Assembly (NCBI GenBank): GCA_000146465.1 | Contig: CP001946.1 | Direction: 5' to 3' (one strand) | Length of the DNA stretch: 64,000 nt | In this document: in pieces, positions 1 to 60,862 of the stretch | Position numbering within the stretch: position 1 is the stretch's first letter | Layout of the letters: the number at the start of each line of letters is the position of its first letter | The notes under the pieces: model-generated | Databases searched by the model: none | The model's input: the letters and a program-made list of their open reading frames with translations, nothing else | What the model was told of the DNA's origin: nothing | Made by a program: the position numbers and the translations under genes

Positions 1-83
1 ATATGTCCACCGGTTTCATAGGGACTATTACAGCTTCAAATATCTCCTTGCCGTCTTTTATACCCCTTTGTCCCCATCCCTAG

Positions 84-1610
84 ATGATTCCTATTCTCTA
101 TGGCTCCCAAACTGGAACTTCTATCTATGTCAGCAACCTCATAGAAAGAGCACTTTTGTACGGATACGACCCAAAAACAATTTACAACCTGGATTGCTTT
201 TTCAACTCCCGAGATCAGGAAAACCTATCGTCAGTAATGGAAATGGATCTCTTTGATATAGAAAAAATTCTTGACATAGACTTTATCATATTTGTTTGTT
301 CAACACATGGTGATGGAACAGAGCCATTTAACATGACTAAGTTCTGGTCTTTTCTGTCAAATAGTGATCTACCAGGCAATCTATTGTCGCATTTAAACTT
401 TGCAGTCTTTGGCCTTGGAGACTCTTCGTATGAAAAGTTCAACTACTGCTCCAAAAAACTCTTTAACAGACTCAGGATGCTGGGTGCAAAGCCTGTGGTA
501 AGAAGAGGAGATGGAAATGCCCAGGATAAAGAGGGATTTCTCTCTGATCTTCGCCCGTGGCTACTAGAACTCATGGCTCATTTTGATCCTCTCAAGATAA
601 AGCACATTGATATTCTCTCTCTTAAGCCTGAGAAATATACCTCGAGATTGGTTGGGAAGAGATTGCTGACACCCGAAGGGCATTTCCAAAAGATAATAGA
701 ATTGGTATTTGAAATTCCAGAATATAAAGAATTCTCGCCGGGAGATTGCCTGTCCTTTTGCCCAGAAAATTATAACTACAAAGAGTTTATGAAATACAAC
801 GGCATGGAAGAAGATGTAGATGGGATATCATCGTCCTTAATGATGAAGCATTCAATAGACTTTAACTCACAACCTCATCAGCCATTCTTTTTTGCACTGA
901 GGTATTTCTTGGATAGAAAAGGCGGTATCGAAGACGAAGTTCTTTTAAAGATAGAAGAGATTGCACAAGACTATGATTTATATTATGAATATATAGTTAA
1001 GCCCAAAAGAACAATATTCGAGGTTCTCCAGGAGTTAAGAGTGAAGGTTGATGCCAGGTTTCTCAAGAAATTTGTACCTACTATATACCCAAGGTTTTTC
1101 TCTGTAACAAAGAAGAAAGGTCTATATCATGTTACTGTTGCTGTTGTAAATTACAAGACTATCCTTTCTCAACCTCGAAGGGGAGTCTGCTCGGAATATT
1201 TGATGGGCCTCAGTCTAAACGATAAAGTCCCCATAGGAATTGGAAGAAGCAATCTATACTTTGGATCCAACAAGCTATTGTTTATATGCACGGGTACTGG
1301 GATAACTTTACCAAGAGCTTGTATCAACGAGTTTAAAGACAAAGAAATTGTTGTGTTTTACGGATTCCGATACAGAGATAGAGACTTCCTATATTCCGAC
1401 GAATGGAATTGCAAGAATGTGAGAATGCTTACTGCTGCATCCAGAGATGATAAGATGTATGTGCAGGATGTTTTCAATAGAAACCCCATTGAAGACATTG
1501 ACGAGTATTTAATATTTGTGAGTGGGAATTCAAGATTAAACAAGGAGGTGAGGAAATTGTTCCAGAAGTTGTATGGAAGAACAATTGCATTCCAGTCTGA
1601 AACATGGTGA
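84..1610 (+). CDS. TAH18: NADPH-dependent diflavin oxidoreductase (Tah18/NDOR1-like; flavodoxin + FAD/NADPH domains)
   Basis: ATG at 84 preceded by an in-frame TAG. The N-terminus has the flavodoxin signature ILYGSQTGTS ... FVCSTHGDGTEP ... FAVFGLGDSSYEKFN, followed by ferredoxin-reductase-like FAD/NAD motifs (...LFICTGTGITLPRA...). A CCC-rich stretch lies immediately upstream of the ATG. Confidence 0.7.
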   Translation: MIPILYGSQTGTSIYVSNLIERALLYGYDPKTIYNLDCFFNSRDQENLSSVMEMDLFDIEKILDIDFIIFVCSTHGDGTEPFNMTKFWSFLSNSDLPGNLLSHLNFAVFGLGDSSYEKFNYCSKKLFNRLRMLGAKPVVRRGDGNAQDKEGFLSDLRPWLLELMAHFDPLKIKHIDILSLKPEKYTSRLVGKRLLTPEGHFQKIIELVFEIPEYKEFSPGDCLSFCPENYNYKEFMKYNGMEEDVDGISSSLMMKHSIDFNSQPHQPFFFALRYFLDRKGGIEDEVLLKIEEIAQDYDLYYEYIVKPKRTIFEVLQELRVKVDARFLKKFVPTIYPRFFSVTKKKGLYHVTVAVVNYKTILSQPRRGVCSEYLMGLSLNDKVPIGIGRSNLYFGSNKLLFICTGTGITLPRACINEFKDKEIVVFYGFRYRDRDFLYSDEWNCKNVRMLTAASRDDKMYVQDVFNRNPIEDIDEYLIFVSGNSRLNKEVRKLFQKLYGRTIAFQSETW

Positions 1611-1650
1611 GTCTTTCCCTTGATTCTCCTGTAGGTTTAGTGTCGGTAGT

Positions 1651-1679
1651 AAAAGCAAAAATTTGCATCACCCCAAGAA
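1651..1679 (+). promoter_or_regulatory. AAATTT-like plus CCC-like proximal promoter motifs upstream of RPS3A
   Basis: aaaagcaaaaatttgcatcaccccaagaaa sits directly 5' of the ATG at 1680. The same pattern is seen upstream of RPS6 and RPL10A in this window. A signal of this kind has been described for microsporidian genes. Confidence 0.4.
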
Positions 1680-2435
1680 ATGGTAAGTGAACAATCATGG
1701 AATTGATCTAACTTTTAGGCAATACAACCACCAGGATCATATCCACAAGGGAACAAGAAGGGAAAAGCCAAAAAGAAGGCTGGGCAAAATACATTTGAAA
1801 GGAAGGAGTGGTATAACCTCCGATCTCCATCGATTTTTCCCTGCAATATCAGTGGAAAGACCTTTGTAGCAAAGTCCACGAGCAAGAATACCAATTTGAA
1901 GCTTATAGGAAGGAGGTATGACGTTAACCATGCAGACCTTACGAAAAACAATGATTTCACACATCGGAAATTCATATTCAAGGTAGGGGATGTCAAGGGG
2001 GCCGATTGCATTGGATTCTTTGATGGAATGGAGTTAACATCTGATAAGCACAAAGCAATGATCAAGAAATGGCATACTCTTATCGAAGCTCAAAAGGACA
2101 TTGTGGCAAAGGACCGGAGCGTTTTCAGAGTGTTTGTCATGGCAGTTACGAGGAGGCCGCAAGGGTATACCAAGAAGACATGTTATGTCAAGCATTCCGA
2201 AGAGAAAAAGATCAGAAAGATTATGTTTGATGTCATTGAGCAGGAGCTTGGAGGACGTAGTGTTGATGAAATCATGAACAAGCTTTCTAACGAGACAGTT
2301 GGAAAGAGGATTGAAGAGTTGGGGAGCGAGATATTCCCCTTGCAAAACTGCTGCGTTAGAAAGGTCAAGACAATCAAGAGCTATCAAGGAGTAAGTATTG
2401 GCCAAGAGGAGGAAGTTGGAGCCATAGCTAATTAA
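1680..2435 (+). CDS. RPS3A: 40S ribosomal protein eS1 (S3a), two exons: 1680..1682 and 1719..2435, with a 36-nt intron at 1683..1718
   Basis: The listed 179-aa ORF (1896..2435, TTG-initiated in the track) matches the S3a C-terminal region. The same frame stays open upstream to 1719 and encodes the S3a N-terminal consensus (GNKKGKAKKKAGQNTFERKEWYNLRSPSIF...GKTFVAKS), with no in-frame ATG. The ATG at 1680 is followed by GTAAGTGAACAATCATGGAATTGATCTAACTTTTAG (1683..1718), and splicing restores the frame to give MAIQPPGSY... Confidence 0.8.
1683..1718 (+). other. spliceosomal intron (36 nt) in RPS3A
   Basis: GTAAGT donor directly after the ATG. CTAAC branch motif 6 nt upstream of a TTTTAG acceptor. 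Removal joins ATG in frame to GCA at 1719. Confidence 0.75.
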
Positions 2436-2513
2436 AGCATTCTTTTTTCCTTTTCGGCCGATATTTCAGTGTGTCTAAATAGAAAGAAGCCTTGAAAATC
2501 ACCACCGTGTTGT

Positions 2514-3284
2514 TTAATCCTCGTCTATATCCCCAAGCCCCAGATCTTTCAGCTTCTGCCTCACCTTCTCATAGGTGTCGTCGGGGTTTTTGACGGTTAT
2601 TCCATGGACATCCTTATGGATGTAGATTTCGTAGTCGTTTCCTCCCTCTTGGGTCATATCCCCGAAGAAATACACATTCTCAATTCCCTCCTTCTTTATG
2701 TGCCTCAGACAGTATGTCTTGTCCCAGCCCTTTGGGAAGCAGTCAATTGATATCTGTCCTCCAATCGAGAACACCATACAGCTACCTTTGAATTTTTCCC
2801 TCATGGCTGCAACCATCTTTTCTCGGAATTTCTCCTTCTTATCAATCTCAAAAAACTCCTTGCGCTCCTCCCTACTGCAATTCCTTCCTATCGGGCTTAT
2901 GTTAATCATGGAGTTCCTATATTCAATGAAGTTACCCCTTTTTATGGGAATTTCCAGCTTGCTAAGATACTCTAGGACAAAGTTGACAAACTCTTTGTAA
3001 AATTTCTCCCCAAGGACATCGATTATCTTTTCCTGAGACTCCAGAGCCCCTTTCTTGTAGAAGCTGAGACCGTTTTCTGGAAATCCATAATCAAATAGCT
3101 CAAGAAGATCGTCTCCAATTTGCTCCTTTTGCTTTTCAAGGTCTGATCCCCCCACAAACCCCAGGCAAACCTTCTTCTTAAGTTTCCTTACCATCTTCTT
3201 CATTTTCTCAGTCATCTGAGCCCTTGATTCCGAAAGCGTTCCGTCCACATCAAACAAAAAGATTGTCTTCTCGTCTTTTGCCAT
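2514..3284 (-). CDS. SEC53: phosphomannomutase (HAD family)
   Basis: MAKDEKTIFLFDVDGTL... carries the DVDGT HAD motif and shows PMM-like conservation throughout. The start is taken at the cat at 3282-3284; an upstream in-frame ATG at 3302 (MQTKWT-) is less likely. Confidence 0.85.
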   Translation of the reverse strand: MAKDEKTIFLFDVDGTLSESRAQMTEKMKKMVRKLKKKVCLGFVGGSDLEKQKEQIGDDLLELFDYGFPENGLSFYKKGALESQEKIIDVLGEKFYKEFVNFVLEYLSKLEIPIKRGNFIEYRNSMINISPIGRNCSREERKEFFEIDKKEKFREKMVAAMREKFKGSCMVFSIGGQISIDCFPKGWDKTYCLRHIKKEGIENVYFFGDMTQEGGNDYEIYIHKDVHGITVKNPDDTYEKVRQKLKDLGLGDIDED

Positions 3285-3452
3285 GGTCCATTTCGTTTGC
3301 ATTCCTTTTATTACATTTTGTTTCAGATGTTTAATTCATTAATGGGTATGTCAATCAAAAATCATTGGAAATATTCCAATAGGTCCTGGTCTTCGAAGAA
3401 GGCACAAACACAACTCAAGATTGATTTCTATACTCTAAAGGAAGCTTTACTT

Positions 3453-4490
3453 TTATTGTTCAATAGACTCGGAAGAAATACACTCCAAAATGGAATCGTA
3501 TCCCTTATCTTCATAGCATATTCTGTACACAGTGCTTATGAGAGGAAACTCATCAGTTCTCTTTTGTCTTTTCAGGTAATTGTATACAATAAGAGCTGTG
3601 TTTGGCCCCTGGAGCTTTGTAAAACACATGGTGTCCTCGGCCTCTTTTAAGCTCATTCTTTTTTCTGCCATAAGCTTTGCACATTTGAAGTTTCTTCCCG
3701 AAATGCATGATACAAGAAGATCCCCCACTCCAGATGACTGAAACAGGGACTCTATTGTTGCCATCGGGTAGAAAAATTTGAAGAACTTTCTCATTTCGGC
3801 AAATCCGTTCCTGAATATGGCGACCTTTGTATTGCAGCAGTAACCTAGTCCTTCTGCAAAGCCATATCCCATGGAAACAATGTTTTTCAAGGCTCCAGAG
3901 ATTTCCACTCCATAGACATCCTTGATTTTTGTGATCCTGTATGTGTAACTATTAAAGAGTTTGTAAACTATGTCGGCTGCATCCTCATCTGTATACCCCA
4001 ATGTCCCTTCGCTTATCATGTCTCGTGCAACTTGGTCGGCGATATTTGCTCCCATCACCACGCTTACATTTATGTTTAGAATCCTGTGAATAGACCTACT
4101 CACCAGATCTATGTCTCCATCTTCTGCGCCAATAAATCCTTTTGTCAACGACACCCCAATGCAGTTGCTCTTCACCAATCCCTTTAAAGGTTCTATGGCC
4201 TTTATATATTGATGGGGAAGAGCAAAAACAAGCACATCCGAGTCAGAAAGGGTGCATATGTCTTCAACAGCCTTAAGGTTCTCGGGAAGATGGATTCCTG
4301 GCAAGTACTTCGGATTGTTTCTCTCGCTGTTTATAATGTCGCTTAGGATTCTCCCCTCAAATTCCTCTCTATATCCCCACATCCTGACGTCCTTTTCAAA
4401 TATGCTGCTTTCCATCGTGTTGCTTGCCAGAAGCCTGCCTATTGCAGTGCCCCAGTTTCCATTACCTATGATAGAAACCTTCTTGGACAT
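3453..4490 (-). CDS. GPD1: glycerol-3-phosphate dehydrogenase [NAD+]
   Basis: MSKKVSIIGNGNWGTAIG is the Rossmann GxGxxG motif, and GPD family similarity is strong throughout. The ORF track extends 49 codons further 5' (MLAIGEG...), but homology begins at the ATG at 4488-4490. Confidence 0.85.
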   Translation of the reverse strand: MSKKVSIIGNGNWGTAIGRLLASNTMESSIFEKDVRMWGYREEFEGRILSDIINSERNNPKYLPGIHLPENLKAVEDICTLSDSDVLVFALPHQYIKAIEPLKGLVKSNCIGVSLTKGFIGAEDGDIDLVSRSIHRILNINVSVVMGANIADQVARDMISEGTLGYTDEDAADIVYKLFNSYTYRITKIKDVYGVEISGALKNIVSMGYGFAEGLGYCCNTKVAIFRNGFAEMRKFFKFFYPMATIESLFQSSGVGDLLVSCISGRNFKCAKLMAEKRMSLKEAEDTMCFTKLQGPNTALIVYNYLKRQKRTDEFPLISTVYRICYEDKGYDSILECISSESIEQ

Positions 4491-4626
4491 TGTATTATTT
4501 GTTTTTGGGGTACAAGTTATTTTGTTAAATATCCTTCCATAGCTCTGTTTCACAGTCTTGGCAAGTTCGCAACTTTCATACACTTGAGCAGAGTCTTTCT
4601 TAAATTCCTTTAGAATACCCTCTCCA

Positions 4627-4917
4627 ATGGCAAGCACAAGGAAGGTGGAAGTAAACTATGTGGGAAACACTCGCAACACAATAGAATTGAAGATCGATGG
4701 AGAGACACACACACTAGGAAGTCTTCTTTCGGAGGAGCTTCTCGAAGACAAGAGATGCCTCTTCAGTGCATATAGGGTTGAGCATCCTACCGACAATCAT
4801 GTCTTCCTTCGCATTACAGCAGACAAGGATTGTCAAGTAAAAGACTTACTCCTGGAGACACTTAAGAGAATCGAGGAAGATACTGTATTATTGATAAGTC
4901 AACTCAAAGGATTCTAA
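4627..4917 (+). CDS. RPB11: DNA-directed RNA polymerase II subunit RPB11 (RPB11/AC19 family)
   Basis: ETHTLGSLLSEELLEDKRCLFSAYRVEHP matches the Rpb11 core EDHTLGN...LFAAYKVEHP. The product is 96 aa. Confidence 0.7.
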   Translation: MASTRKVEVNYVGNTRNTIELKIDGETHTLGSLLSEELLEDKRCLFSAYRVEHPTDNHVFLRITADKDCQVKDLLLETLKRIEEDTVLLISQLKGF

Positions 4918-4991
4918 AAAGACAGACCATCCTATTTATTCGATAATAAACCAGTAGATTTTGTCCAAGATACTTTATAACAAGTTTCAAG

Positions 4992-5357
4992 CTAAAGAGA
5001 AGGATCATAATCGCCTGCCTCCCTGATGTTTGGGGTTATGATTTCGCAAACAGCCATTTCCCCTATCTCGTCTCCTTTCTCATATACAAATTCCTCGTCC
5101 GAGTCATTGTAGACAATAACACATACCTCTCCTCTGTAATCGCTATCCACAACTCCTCCCAACTTCTTTATCCTTGTTGACTGGATTTTTCCAAAGTATC
5201 TCTTTGGGATCTTCATCATGAATCCAGCAGGAATCTTTGCTCCACATCGTGGGTCAACTTTACCCGAGCAATTCGAGTAAAGCTTGTAAACCCCATTTAT
5301 AAGCTCCGGTACCTTTGCTCCATCTAGAACTTTCACCGAGAAACCCTCTTCTTCCAT
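4992..5357 (-). CDS. DUT1: dUTP pyrophosphatase (short form, 121 aa)
   Basis: GGVVDSDYRGEVCVIVYN is dUTPase motif III (GVIDSDYRGE). IPAGF...IPKRYFGKIQSTR lies upstream. There is no recognisable glycine-rich C-terminal motif V. Confidence 0.6.
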   Translation of the reverse strand: MEEEGFSVKVLDGAKVPELINGVYKLYSNCSGKVDPRCGAKIPAGFMMKIPKRYFGKIQSTRIKKLGGVVDSDYRGEVCVIVYNDSDEEFVYEKGDEIGEMAVCEIITPNIREAGDYDPSL

Positions 5358-5427
5358 GTGGGATTAACGAGAAAAAGATATTTTATCCCGGAACATTTTT
5401 TTCTGGCTTTTGATAGAAAGAATTTGT

Positions 5428-6135
5428 TTATTCAATAACAATTTCATCCTCTCTTACTCCAACGTCCCAGTTGGTTTTGATTAGATATGGATCTGATATG
5501 TGAACTCCTTGGCTGTCGGCATATCCAATCTGCACCTCATTCGACGCATTACAGTCCCTATAACAAAGAATCTCCATGGCCTCCTCAACAAGACGGATTG
5601 CCTCCTCTCTTGTTATCTCTTGTTCTCTTCCTTCTACCTTACTCCTAAGAAACGGAAGAGCCAGATAGCTTCCTATTCCTGTACATATTACATCCGAAAA
5701 GTAGAAGTTCCCCAGACGATCTACACATCCAAGTGTCTTCTCATTGGTCTCAAATTCCTCCTCGGAGTTTCTTACTGTCTTCACTCCTCCCACACAGACA
5801 CTTAGATTTAACGGGCTGATCCTACTTCGGGCTGAATATAGTATTCTTTGAACCATTTTGTGATAACCCTTTGGATCTATTTCTCTGTTGTCCTCCTCTG
5901 TCAGGATATTTAATGTTTTTATCAAGTACTGCATATCACTCACCTCCCCGGAAATTCCCACGAGTGTCCTGCTTCCAAATTTAAACATCCTCTGAACCCC
6001 ATTGAACTTTGTTAGGCGCCCGTAAGATGCCTTGGCGTCTGCTCCCATTATGATTCCATCCTTATATCTGAATGAGACCACAGAGGTTCCTGTTACAAAA
6101 TCCCTCATTTCCGGGGCATTTCTAAGGAACTTCAT
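5428..6135 (-). CDS. PRE4: proteasome subunit beta type-4 (beta7, Pre4-like, non-catalytic)
   Basis: TGTSVVSFRYKDGIIMGADAKASYGRLTKFNGVQRMFKFG...YSARSRISPLNLSVCVGG aligns with PSMB4. Confidence 0.75.
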   Translation of the reverse strand: MKFLRNAPEMRDFVTGTSVVSFRYKDGIIMGADAKASYGRLTKFNGVQRMFKFGSRTLVGISGEVSDMQYLIKTLNILTEEDNREIDPKGYHKMVQRILYSARSRISPLNLSVCVGGVKTVRNSEEEFETNEKTLGCVDRLGNFYFSDVICTGIGSYLALPFLRSKVEGREQEITREEAIRLVEEAMEILCYRDCNASNEVQIGYADSQGVHISDPYLIKTNWDVGVREDEIVIE

Positions 6136-16955: not shown

Positions 16956-18875
16956 ATGCCTTCCAGCTTTGTGAGCCTAACTCCGCTCATAAGAACAGAA
17001 ACTGGGATATACTGCCATCTTCTGGAAGTAGATAATGTAAAGATTCTGATAAATTGTGGAGCATCTTACACAATGGACATGTCTATCTATGCCCCTATCC
17101 TTCCCCAGATACTTTCCTGTGATGCCATCCTCTTGACAAGCTTCGGCATCAATTGTATCGGAGGCCTACCCTATATCCTGCAGAACAACTATTATAACAA
17201 AGTCTTTTCTTCGGTACCGGTTAAGGTTCTTGGGAAGATATGCCTGGACGAGCATCTAAGAGGAATGGGGTTGGAGGCAGAAGTAGACATTGGATGCTTT
17301 GAAAGGATATCGGAGATAAAGTATTCGCAACCAACGATGGTAAACGATGTCGAGATATGTGCATACAACTCTGGAAATTCCATTGGAGGATGCTTGTACA
17401 AGATAAGCAAAGGCGCAGAGAAAATTGTTGTTGGGTTCAATGCAAACCATCGAAAGGAGAACCATCTTGATGGGATGGGATTTGCTGGAGTGGGAGATTG
17501 CAGTCTGTGTGTGTTTAATGGAAATCACGTTCTGGCCGAGAACATCTCGATTGCGAAGAGAGACAATATGTTCAGAGAAGCGATTGGAAGCGCCCTTGAT
17601 TTGGGAAGAAAAGTGATTTTGCCAGTGAAGTATTCACGATTTCTTGAGGTTGCTTTGATACTCAACAGTTTTATGGGGCAAAGAAGTGAAAAGATTGCAT
17701 GCCTGTCATACTTTGGGCAGAGATTTGTAGAAAGAGCAAAGTCGATGATAGAGTGGGCTGGAGAGAAGGTCTCCTCCATGTTTTCTGAAGAGAAGATCAA
17801 CCCATTTGAATTTGAAAAAATCGAGTTTATAGGACATTATCGGGATGTTTCTGAATTTGATGTTATAATTGTGATTGATGAGTATGTGCATGGAGGAATA
17901 CTCACGACGGTTCTTCACAAGTTTAATGATGAGAACAATGTTGTTTTTCTCACAGATCCCAGGATGGAAGCCATTATCAAAAAAGAGTCGTTGGGGATGA
18001 AGTGGTATGACTTCAGGCTTGTGGAAAGGGTAAATGAGAAGAAAAGGGGGAATGGAGACATTGAGGCCTCTGTCATTATAGACGATGCACCTGATGCAAA
18101 TGGAGCCGAGACACATTGGTCTGAAACGAGATATGAAGTATGGTGTGAAGGAGGAGATGAAGTCTTCCCGGCGGTATCAAGAAGGAGGGCATATGATGAC
18201 TATGGGGAGTACATGGACAGATCATTGTTCGTAAGTGAGATTCTCTCTGCAGAAGAAATATCTGAGGAAAAGATGGAGAAGGAGGTGGTAGTAGAAGAAA
18301 GAGAGGTTGCAGGGGAAGGAATTGTTTTGAAATACAGAGTTGAAAAGATGGACTTGATGGGAATCTCGGATTTGAACTCTTGCAAGATGATAATAGAAAC
18401 CATCTCTCCAAAGAAACTTGTATGCATTGGAGAGGATGAGGATACAGAGTGCTTCTTCTACCATACGTTCAAGTATATGCCGTGCTTTGAGGATGTATAC
18501 ATGTGTAGGAGCAAGATAATTCTGTCCTCCGATGTTTCTATGGGAATGGTGAAGCTAGATGAAGGATTCGACAGTCTGAACTACCAGATGATAGGGAATG
18601 ACACGGTGGGGAGTTTCCGAGGAGTCAGGGATGGAGATGTGGTGAGATGCATTGGAAACGGCCCCGGGGTGATGATAGGGCATGTAGACATTAATGAGCT
18701 AAGAAGAATGATCATCGAAAGGAACATGAGGGTGGAGCAGGAGGAAAACGGGCTACTGGTTGAAGATTGTGTGTGGATTAGGATAAATGCAGACGGGCTA
18801 ACGATAGATGGAAAAGACTCGGGAGTGTTTTATGCTGTTCGTGATGTTGTGTACATGAACTCGGCCTTCATATGA
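16956..18875 (+). CDS. CFT2: cleavage and polyadenylation specificity factor subunit 2 (CPSF100/Cft2-like; MBL + beta-CASP fold, inactive His motif)
   Basis: MPSSFVSLTPLIRTETGIYCHLLEVDNVKILINCG...DAILLTSFGINCIGGLPYIL parallels CPSF100 MTSIIKLTTLSG...CYLLQVDEFRFLLDCG...[20 protein letters not shown]. The start is at the ATG at 16956; the track ORF from 16851 would run through the divergent Nse3 CDS. Confidence 0.65.
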   Translation: MPSSFVSLTPLIRTETGIYCHLLEVDNVKILINCGASYTMDMSIYAPILPQILSCDAILLTSFGINCIGGLPYILQNNYYNKVFSSVPVKVLGKICLDEHLRGMGLEAEVDIGCFERISEIKYSQPTMVNDVEICAYNSGNSIGGCLYKISKGAEKIVVGFNANHRKENHLDGMGFAGVGDCSLCVFNGNHVLAENISIAKRDNMFREAIGSALDLGRKVILPVKYSRFLEVALILNSFMGQRSEKIACLSYFGQRFVERAKSMIEWAGEKVSSMFSEEKINPFEFEKIEFIGHYRDVSEFDVIIVIDEYVHGGILTTVLHKFNDENNVVFLTDPRMEAIIKKESLGMKWYDFRLVERVNEKKRGNGDIEASVIIDDAPDANGAETHWSETRYEVWCEGGDEVFPAVSRRRAYDDYGEYMDRSLFVSEILSAEEISEEKMEKEVVVEEREVAGEGIVLKYRVEKMDLMGISDLNSCKMIIETISPKKLVCIGEDEDTECFFYHTFKYMPCFEDVYMCRSKIILSSDVSMGMVKLDEGFDSLNYQMIGNDTVGSFRGVRDGDVVRCIGNGPGVMIGHVDINELRRMIIERNMRVEQEENGLLVEDCVWIRINADGLTIDGKDSGVFYAVRDVVYMNSAFI

Positions 18876-23749: not shown

Positions 23750-25048
23750 ATGATGGAGTTTTGTAGGATTAATGAATTGAACAAAAGGATCCAAGAGCTT
23801 TATCATGCTATGCTTGCAGTGGTTCCGCTTGAAGGGATTGGAGAGCATCCGTTTGATTACTTCAAGGGAGAGGTTGGGCGGATAATTGATTCTGTAGATG
23901 TGGTTCTTAAGGAGATGGTCAATAAAAAGTTAGAATTGCAAAAAGAAATTGATGGAATGGTGAAGGAGATGATGAGGGACTGTACAGACATTGAGGTGTC
24001 TGTTCCCTCTATCCCTAATCTATGCAACCTGTATGTTCTCAAAGAATATGTGAGGAATGAAGCAGAGGGTATAATGATACTAAAGAAGGCAGTGGAGGGA
24101 CGGATGGCAGCGATTATAGAAGAGATGGAGCTGGAGGCCTCCAATGTTGGGATGAAAAAAATTGACTGGATGGATATGGAGTGTGCTGGAGATAAGAAGG
24201 GTGTCTCACTAATGAATCTTCGGGAGCTTGAAATGCATCGGGATGTTTTGAGGAACAAAAGAGAGAGCATGGAGAGAAATAGGGATAGGTTGTACAGAGA
24301 GCTTTGCGTGTTTCTATCACAGTTGTCCAGAAGTGATCCCGAAGTGACTATAGATCAGAAGATCTTTATTCTTGAAAGACTTCATAGAAGATACAAGGAA
24401 GAAGTTGAAAAAAGGGACAAAGAGTTTAGAGGACTTGAGATGGAGATAAGAAGAAGAGAAGGGTATCTCGGGATCGCATGCAAGGATATTGAAATGGATT
24501 TGAGCGAGGCAAATTTAGAGATGATGAGGGACTACGAAAGGTATCTTCTGGAAGAACAGGAAAGACAACTTGATGAGATATACGAGAAGAAAAAAGGCTT
24601 GCTCAAGGAGCTTCTGGAAGTTTTTGGAGAAGATATGGAGGATTACAAGAGGACTGAAAAGGACATTGAAGAGATGTCAAAGATGATTGAAAAGCTAGAA
24701 TCCAAGAAGGATCTCTTCCTGTCGATAAGCTCACTGATGGAGAAAAGGTCTGAGCTTATTAGCAAGATGAATGAATTTGAGAAGATAGCGTCGGATCCAA
24801 AGAGGTTGTTTAGGTCGTCTTTGCAGCTCTTGAGTGAGGAGAAGTTCAGGAACAGCGCATATCCAAATCTAATAAGGATTGAGGAGACGATGTTCAAGCT
24901 TCTGGACGAATATGAAAATAGGTTTGGAAAGTTGTTTAAGGATGGAGTAGACTTCAAGGGATCGCTAAGAGAAGAGATAGAAAATAGAATTGTAAACAAA
25001 ACCGTGTTTATCAACAGGTTGGATTCGCCTTCCAGAAAGAGGAGATAG
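23750..25048 (+). CDS. microtubule-bundling protein of the Ase1/PRC1/MAP65 family
   Basis: A long coiled coil followed by DPKRLFRSSLQLLSEEKFRNSAYPNLIRIEETMFKLLDEYENRFGKLF, which matches the PRC1 spectrin-fold motif DPSRLF..RG.LLKEEK.R..L.KLE..L...WE.E....F. Confidence 0.5.
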   Translation: MMEFCRINELNKRIQELYHAMLAVVPLEGIGEHPFDYFKGEVGRIIDSVDVVLKEMVNKKLELQKEIDGMVKEMMRDCTDIEVSVPSIPNLCNLYVLKEYVRNEAEGIMILKKAVEGRMAAIIEEMELEASNVGMKKIDWMDMECAGDKKGVSLMNLRELEMHRDVLRNKRESMERNRDRLYRELCVFLSQLSRSDPEVTIDQKIFILERLHRRYKEEVEKRDKEFRGLEMEIRRREGYLGIACKDIEMDLSEANLEMMRDYERYLLEEQERQLDEIYEKKKGLLKELLEVFGEDMEDYKRTEKDIEEMSKMIEKLESKKDLFLSISSLMEKRSELISKMNEFEKIASDPKRLFRSSLQLLSEEKFRNSAYPNLIRIEETMFKLLDEYENRFGKLFKDGVDFKGSLREEIENRIVNKTVFINRLDSPSRKRR

Positions 25049-52082: not shown

Positions 52083-52165
52083 GGTGGCGTGGCCGAGCGG
52101 TCTAAGGCGGCAGACTTAAGATCTGCTATCGGAAGATGTCGTGGGTTCGAACCCCACCGCCACCA
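52083..52165 (+). tRNA. tRNA-Leu (anticodon UAA), class II with long variable arm
   Basis: Acceptor GGTGGCG/CGCCACC and a 3-bp D-stem (GCC/GGC) with an 11-nt D-loop. Anticodon stem GCAGA/TCTGC with loop CTTAAGA, so anticodon TAA. A 14-nt variable arm. T-arm GTGGG-TTCGAAC-CCCAC. Discriminator A. No encoded CCA. The A-box TGGCCGAGCGG and B-box GGTTCGAACC are internal. Confidence 0.8.
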
Positions 52166-60150: not shown

Positions 60151-60179
60151 TAAATTTTTTTTCGAGTCTACCCTTGTGA
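60151..60179 (+). promoter_or_regulatory. AAATTT-like plus CCC-like proximal promoter motifs upstream of RPS6
   Basis: taaattttttttcgagtctacccttgtga sits immediately 5' of the ATG at 60180. Confidence 0.4.
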
Positions 60180-60862
60180 ATGAAGGTAAGTGGACTTTGA
60201 AAGACTAATTTCAGTTAAACATAGCATATCCAACGAATGGTACACAGAAGATGTTTGAGATTGAAAGAAAGGTGGAATCAAGGCTTTACGACAAGAAGAT
60301 AGGAGATCAGTTTGATGGGGGAATTCTCGGAGAAGAGTTTGAAGGAACAATTATGGAGATCACAGGAGGAGACGACTATCAGGGCTTTCCCATGGTAGGG
60401 GGGCACTTGACGAAGAAGAGAGTAAGGCCTCTTCTATCGAAGGGGGATACAGGATACCGATGCAGACGCAAGGGAGAGAGGCGGCGCAAAAGCGTCCGTG
60501 GATCGATTGTTTCTGAGCAGACCTGTGTACTGAGCCTGATAATTCTGCGAGCCGGGGAGAAGGAGATAGATGGGCTTACAAATGTTGTCAATGACGTTTC
60601 CCATCTTCCCAGGAAGGAGAAGAAGCTTAGGAAGATGTTTGGGATTCCTGCAGAGGAAGAAAACGTTGTGGGATACATCAGGAACATATTTAAGTCTGAA
60701 TGTGAAGATCCAAAGAAGATACCCAAGATTCGGTGCAATGGAAAGAAAATAAGGAAGGAAAAAGAAAGAAGAGAGGAGGCTAGGAAGATCAGAGGAGAAA
60801 GAAGAAGAATATTGGAGGAGGAAAGGAAAGCATATCTTGAGAAGTACTTCAATAAAGCCTGA
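60180..60862 (+). CDS. RPS6: 40S ribosomal protein eS6, two exons: 60180..60185 and 60215..60862, with a 29-nt intron at 60186..60214
   Basis: The track ORF (60251..60862) lacks the S6 N-terminus. ATG AAG at 60180-60185 is followed by GTAAGTGGACTTTGAAAGACTAATTTCAG. The spliced product [30 protein letters not shown]... matches eS6 [31 protein letters not shown].... Downstream: ISGGNDKQGFPM-like ITGGDDYQGFPM, and RKGERRRKSVRG. Confidence 0.85.
60186..60214 (+). other. spliceosomal intron (29 nt) in RPS6
   Basis: GTAAGT donor after the second codon. ACTAAT branch motif 5 nt upstream of a TTCAG acceptor. Exon 2 is in frame with the downstream S6 ORF. Confidence 0.8.

Follow-up and report, generated by a model that had tools for sequence, protein, structure and literature searches.

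The gene for ribosomal protein S3A (RPS3A, eS1 family) of Encephalitozoon intestinalis raises the question of where its coding sequence begins. In the 64-kb stretch of DNA analyzed here (the window), the S3A frame opens at 1719 and offers no in-frame ATG until 2028, its codon 104. Because that ATG comes so late, the mechanical list of open reading frames holds a single entry at this locus, a TTG-started ORF of 179 aa (1896 to 2435). An ATG further upstream, at 1680 to 1682, is followed directly by the 36 nt GTAAGTGAACAATCATGGAATTGATCTAACTTTTAG, which fills 1683 to 1718 and ends in a TAG (1716 to 1718) that doubles as the stop codon closing the S3A frame upstream. The original prediction, made from the sequence of the window, read this arrangement as a spliceosomal intron that an intronless ORF caller misses, and the features it named (the ATG followed by a 36-nt GTAAGT...TTTTAG string, the frame open back to 1719 with no in-frame ATG ahead of the listed ORF, and the truncated entry in the ORF list) are all present. 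Based on the analysis described below, RPS3A almost certainly carries a predicted 36-nt U2-type GT-AG spliceosomal intron directly after its start codon, of the 5′-biased microsporidian type (Table 1).

Table 1. Predicted features of the RPS3A locus of E. intestinalis, in window coordinates
Feature	Position	Strand	Basis
Upstream signal AAATTTGCATCACCCCAAGAA, an AAATTT-like then a CCC-like motif, abutting the start codon	1659..1679	+	sequence, pattern match, ortholog alignment
Exon 1, coding part (start codon ATG only)	1680..1682	+	invariant in 9/9 aligned loci
Spliceosomal intron, 36 nt, phase 0, GT-AG	1683..1718	+	sequence; public gene span of 756 nt for a 239-aa product
5′ splice site GTAAGTG	1683..1689	+	GTARGTG kept in 7/7 intron-bearing orthologs
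Branch-point motif CTAAC, predicted branch adenosine 1711	1708..1712	+	CTAAY kept in 7/7 intron-bearing orthologs
3′ splice site TTTTAG	1713..1718	+	sequence and ortholog alignment
Exon 2, eS1/S3A codons 2-239 and TAA stop (2433-2435)	1719..2435	+	PF01015 match, identity to ADM11471.1

The intron begins at the base after the initiator ATG, with GT at 1683-1684, AG at 1717-1718 and the strict donor GTAAGT at 1683-1688. Four bases (TTTT) separate the CTAAC motif from the AG, and counted from the predicted branch adenosine, A1711, the A of AG is 6 nt away and the final base of the intron 7 nt; this short distance to the intron 3′ end, 7 nt in E. intestinalis, is 6 to 7 nt across the orthologs. 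The original prediction had placed CTAAC 6 nt before the AG, a figure that is right for the distance from A1711 to the A of AG but not for the gap between motif and AG. The length of 36 nt falls inside the ranges reported for E. intestinalis (23-47 bp; PMC4355639, Table 1) and E. cuniculi (22-76 nt; PMC3629993). When ATG is joined to 1719-2435, the frame is restored, ATG being fused to GCA as had been proposed, and the product has 239 aa, where 252 aa had been predicted, with the N-terminus MAIQPPGSYPQGNKKGKAKKK. The protein begins MAIQPPGSY, and its predicted N-terminal peptide is (M)AIQPPGSYPQGNK. With the intron retained, the reading is MVSEQSWN followed by a stop, a peptide of 8 aa.

The spliced product matches the Pfam family PF01015 (Ribosomal_S3Ae) with E = 4.6e-57 and 193 bits (cutoff 29.3), residues 19-221 corresponding to profile positions 2-189 of 191, that is, to the full length of the family. 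The best match in the PDB is chain 7qep_S1 of the E. cuniculi ribosome (239 aa, E = 1.1e-129), which has an identical N-terminus, MAIQPPGSYPQGNKKGKAKKK, and further matches are eS1 chains from the ribosomes of microsporidia, yeast and mammals. In a large protein collection, the entry ADM11471.1 ([quoted passage not shown]) equals the spliced product with 100% identity over 239/239 aa, and three KAL entries hold the same protein. This identifies the window as E. intestinalis DNA.

These records bear on the novelty of the intron, which had been put forward as unannotated. In CP075162.1, the S3A gene spans 756 nt, made up of 720 nt of coding sequence (239 codons and stop) and 36 nt more, and its DNA is identical to window positions 1680-2435. 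Because the gene span exceeds the coding sequence by 36 nt and ADM11471.1 equals the spliced model, the intron is present in the public annotation, and the feature described here and the annotated intron of E. intestinalis ATCC 50506 are one and the same; the label “unannotated” fits only the output of an intronless ORF caller. The introns of the E. intestinalis genome were detected and annotated manually (PMC4355639), and a 2009 paper reported the corresponding intron of E. cuniculi (see below). The intron is therefore already known. Over positions 1-5435, the window differs from CP075162.1 (GCA_024399295.1; L001 1322-6756) at 4 of 5435 bases (99.93% identity), and the S3A gene is free of differences; the window therefore probably derives from another E. 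intestinalis assembly or isolate.

The sequence ahead of the start codon points to the same start site. Microsporidian ribosomal protein genes carry an AAATTT-like and a CCC-like motif just 5′ of the true start codon and have 5′ UTRs of only a few bases (Peyretaillade et al. 2009, PMC2803860). The E. intestinalis gene has AAAAATTTGCATCACCCCAAGAA directly before ATG 1680, and its upstream signal, which is kept in the aligned orthologs, is nearly identical to that of E. cuniculi S3A, AAAAATTTGCGCCACCCCAGGAA. The latter is entered in Additional file 3 of the same paper as “AAAAATTTGCGCCACCCCAGGAA”, with a star denoting a mispredicted start and the addition “(intron)”. The AAATTT..CCC..ATG pattern is weak by itself, since the 64-kb window contains six matches where 2.55 are expected, and it carries weight only in combination with the near-identical signal published for E. 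cuniculi. On this comparison, the signal is a putative mark of a ribosomal-protein-gene promoter and transcription-start region, which would imply a very short 5′ UTR. For E. cuniculi, the reference entry NP_597364.2 now has 239 aa, and a shortened 189-aa S3A model with an internal Met start is still public in a strain record (AGE95466.1).

We aligned nine S3A loci, seven with the intron (the E. intestinalis window included) and two without. The loci share a gene order, with a flavodoxin/FAD reductase upstream and phosphomannomutase and glycerol-3-phosphate dehydrogenase downstream. Six orthologous loci have an intron at the site found in E. intestinalis (phase 0, after codon 1), all of 33-36 nt: E. 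cuniculi (L011) and E. hellem (L013), 36 nt each; E. romaleae (L002), 35 nt; Ordospora colligata (L003), 34 nt; and two relatives from public run assemblies, of 36 nt (L006) and 33 nt (L007), both with a GTAGGT donor. For the four named species, intron length was obtained as gene span minus CDS length. Conserved throughout are the ATG, GTARGTG, CTAAY-TTNYAG and the start of exon 2, GCN ATA CAA CCA CC. Between these signals, the interior differs between species about as much as random sequence does, and lengths differ by 1-3 nt. Since the interior is unrelated and lengths differ by non-multiples of three, this is what would be expected of a non-coding stretch in which only the splice signals are under constraint. 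Every version of the intron in the seven loci gives an in-frame stop or a frameshift if retained (for L007, by reading of the sequence). The E. cuniculi intron (chromosome V, AL590445.1; NP_597364.2 / CAD26541.2) is the closest point of reference: it is likewise in phase 0 after the ATG, 36 nt long, with a GTAAGTG donor, 7 nt between branch A and 3′ end, and a near-identical AAATTT/CCC signal, but it has a CTAAT branch motif and a TTCTAG acceptor in place of CTAAC and TTTTAG, and its interior is unrelated.

The intronless loci are a relative represented by two Logan contigs (L004 1501-2220, from SRR21023573, and L005 349-1068, from SRR21023580) and an AT-rich, Nosema-like contig (L008). In all of them, ATG GCG/GCA ATA/ATT CAA CC runs on without interruption, and because these orthologs join ATG directly to GCN ATH CAA CC, they give an independent fix on the ATG-GCA exon junction. 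The L004 contig (45.7 kb) is syntenic with Encephalitozoon, and its eS1 is 72-79% identical to the Encephalitozoon proteins; in a single-protein neighbor-joining tree without support values, it falls beside the intron-bearing L007, inside the Encephalitozoon/Ordospora clade. This grouping of an intronless locus next to one with a 33-nt intron suggests a recent, precise loss of the intron in the L004 lineage. With the same-site introns, the intronless orthologs and the upstream ribosomal-protein signal, the microsporidian layout named in the original prediction is found as described, and the comparison with other loci and with the eS1 family profile that it had proposed comes out in its favor.

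On every feature that sequence can test, the RPS3A intron is a textbook member of the short, 5′-biased introns of microsporidian ribosomal protein genes. That class comprises GT-AG introns of about 25 nt, usually placed directly after the initiator ATG (PMC6349667). The RPS3A intron shares its size, GT-AG ends, strict GTAAGT donor, branch motif adjoining the 3′ splice site, start after the ATG, ribosomal-protein host gene and stop on retention, and we found no differences. The “long” introns of the same organisms (in Poly-A binding protein and S23) use the same spliceosome and GT-AG ends, but they are about 76 nt long and highly spliced, their interior is conserved, and their branch-point/U2 pairing is hyper-extended (Whelan et al. 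2019, PMC6349667). The RPS3A intron has none of these long-intron features. Ribosomal-protein-gene introns of Saccharomyces cerevisiae are 5′-proximal, with strict donors and UACUAAC-type branch sites; they typically measure hundreds of nucleotides, and some carry structures for autoregulation. The RPS3A intron resembles them in ribosomal-protein enrichment, 5′ location, strict donor and UACUAAC-type branch, and differs in its 36 nt and in the lack of a conserved interior.

As to how the transcript would be processed, we infer the transcription start, the branch adenosine, the snRNA pairing and the splicing event in E. intestinalis RNA as follows. Transcription would start a few bases upstream of ATG 1680, behind the AAATTT/CCC signal, and the first exon would then measure under about 10 nt. 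The reduced microsporidian spliceosome would recognize the GTAAGT donor and the CTAAC branch motif near the 3′ end; as in pre-mRNA splicing generally, U1 would pair with G-GUAAGU and U2 with the CUAAC region, bulging A1711. A lariat would form and AUG would be ligated to GCA, giving the 239-aa protein MAIQPPGSY..., while an unspliced S3A RNA would yield only the 8-aa peptide. Evidence on RNA comes from the related species. In E. cuniculi, which has the same intron complement as E. intestinalis (PMC4355639), RNA-seq confirmed splicing of all previously annotated introns, the genes of the junctions being named in a figure (PMC3629993). A search of the literature for E. intestinalis splice-junction data returned no paper, and in the protein collection, searched for RNA evidence, all records of the exact spliced S3A protein come from contigs of 50 kb or more, taken as genomic. 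A Logan contig of 1707 nt (L015) has genes on either strand and is therefore uninformative on splicing. The introns of E. cuniculi are reportedly listed by Lee et al. (2010, Mol Biol Evol).

In E. cuniculi, splicing is often incomplete: the spliced fraction is below 50% at 30 of 37 junctions and shifts between time points at 11 of 37 (PMC3629993); short introns are on average less than 20% spliced (PMC3629993, PMC6349667), compared with about 80% for yeast introns (PMC3629993). Since the short introns of E. cuniculi are spliced at such low levels, much of the S3A transcript pool in E. intestinalis may stay unspliced. A refinement compatible with a genuine intron takes this further: inefficient splicing would leave most transcripts encoding only MVSEQSWN, and retention would limit or regulate eS1, perhaps in response to life-cycle stage or, as in the autoregulation of yeast ribosomal proteins, to eS1 itself. 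The time-dependent junctions and the early stop on retention are in keeping with this idea, as is the report that conservation between E. cuniculi and E. intestinalis is higher in introns than at synonymous sites (PMC4355639). However, interior positions 8-24 of the S3A intron match between these two species at only about 6 of 17 (alignment, by eye), and because the interior is unconserved it gives no hint of a structured element or of a site for protein binding. An Rfam scan of the whole window returned no RNA family in or near the intron. The intron also appears dispensable, because it was cleanly lost in the close relative L004 and is absent from the Nosema-like L008, and the authors of the E. 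cuniculi study ascribe the low splicing to an inefficient, reduced spliceosome (PMC3629993). We regard regulation by retention as unlikely. The still more specific proposal, that the intron is kept as a throttle by which inefficient or stage-dependent splicing sets the productive share of eS1 mRNA, and is a regulatory device more than a relic that is hard to lose, strikes us as decidedly doubtful; if it were true, that share would be set at the splicing step.

A rival reading does without splicing: eS1 would be translated from unspliced mRNA, from a non-AUG codon within 1719-1895 (TTG 1896 being the example considered) or from the internal ATG 2028, and the intron-like string would be 5′ UTR. 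The ORF caller's TTG-started ORF, the internal Met start of the E. cuniculi record AGE95466.1 and the poor splicing of E. cuniculi short introns could all be taken that way. Yet residues 2-59 (AIQPPGSYPQGNKKGK...KEWYNLRSPSIF), upstream of the listed ORF, are conserved across microsporidia, as the original prediction had it for the N-terminal residues, and in the intronless orthologs they directly follow the ATG. The Pfam eS1 domain begins at residue 19, and a start at ATG 2028 would drop 103 conserved residues. Moreover, the promoter signal stands before ATG 1680, and neither 1896 nor 2028 is preceded by it; between the conserved splice signals the intron interior drifts; and the start of the shortened E. 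cuniculi model was marked as mispredicted. We consider translation without splicing highly improbable, and an intron directly after ATG 1680 remains the preferred reading.

Could the GTAAGT...CTAAC...AG string be a functionless coincidence upstream of the ORF? The pattern alone is not rare, since GTAAGT-N(4-34)-CTAAY-N(0-8)-AG has three matches in the 64-kb window against 0.64 expected from shuffles, it matches by chance at 2391-2437, and looser variants match at 24031-24085 and 18917-18881 (minus strand), but the RPS3A match fills precisely the gap between the ATG and the opening of the conserved frame (about 1e-7 per site, by our own rough estimate from the 0.64), recurs at the same site with conserved ends in seven orthologous loci, is absent without other change from two intronless orthologs and is used as an intron in the public annotation, so that coincidence is effectively refuted by the comparative data.

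With the strict pattern, and with the loose pattern combined with an ORF test, only two convincing intron candidates emerged from the window, RPS3A and RPS6. The four other matches were judged to be chance. The GTAAGT...CTAAT...AG match at 2391-2437 (+), at the S3A 3′ end, spans the conserved C-terminus and the stop codon, and was rejected because the C-terminal residues are matched in all full-length Encephalitozoon/Ordospora orthologs. The match at 24031-24085, a looser variant, lies inside a continuous 432-aa ORF; removal of 18642-18698 shortens its ORF; and 18917-18881 (minus strand) appeared in the looser scan only and is missing from the candidates left after the ORF test. The second intron of the RPS3A type is in RPS6 (eS6), where an AAATTT...CCC signal at 60152-60179 precedes exon 1, ATGAAG, at 60180-60185 (+). 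The 29-nt intron GTAAGTGGACTTTGAAAGACTAATTTCAG, with a GTAAGTG donor, occupies 60186-60214, and exon 2 runs to a stop at 60862. Spliced RPS6 has 217 aa and is identical to ADM11517.2, so this intron, too, is part of the existing annotation. The RPS6 start, like that of RPS3A, would escape an intronless ORF caller.

The import of the RPS3A intron beyond annotation quality is small, tiny 5′-biased introns in ribosomal protein genes and a reduced spliceosome being established biology. For annotation, the case is instructive: an intronless ORF caller shortens microsporidian ribosomal protein genes, here by 60 of 239 residues, the start codon included. The first annotation of E. cuniculi had the same start error, and at least one strain record (AGE95466.1) still has it. 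Pipelines for microsporidian genomes need an explicit search for ATG-GTAAGT...CTAAY...AG behind AAATTT/CCC signals.

Two minor observations were made along the way. A metatranscriptome sequence from a related microsporidian (L016 1-957; JGI 3300030565) runs from the 3′ end of the upstream reductase gene across the intergenic region into ATG GCA ATA CAA, with no intron. It is poly(A)-tailed, with about 25 A's followed by sequence that does not look genomic, and is probably cDNA; it is either a read-through transcript that was spliced or the product of a further lineage without the intron. Finally, a tRNA-Leu (anticodon TAA) of 83 nt at 52083-52165 (+) is the sole Rfam match and the sole ARAGORN match in the window.
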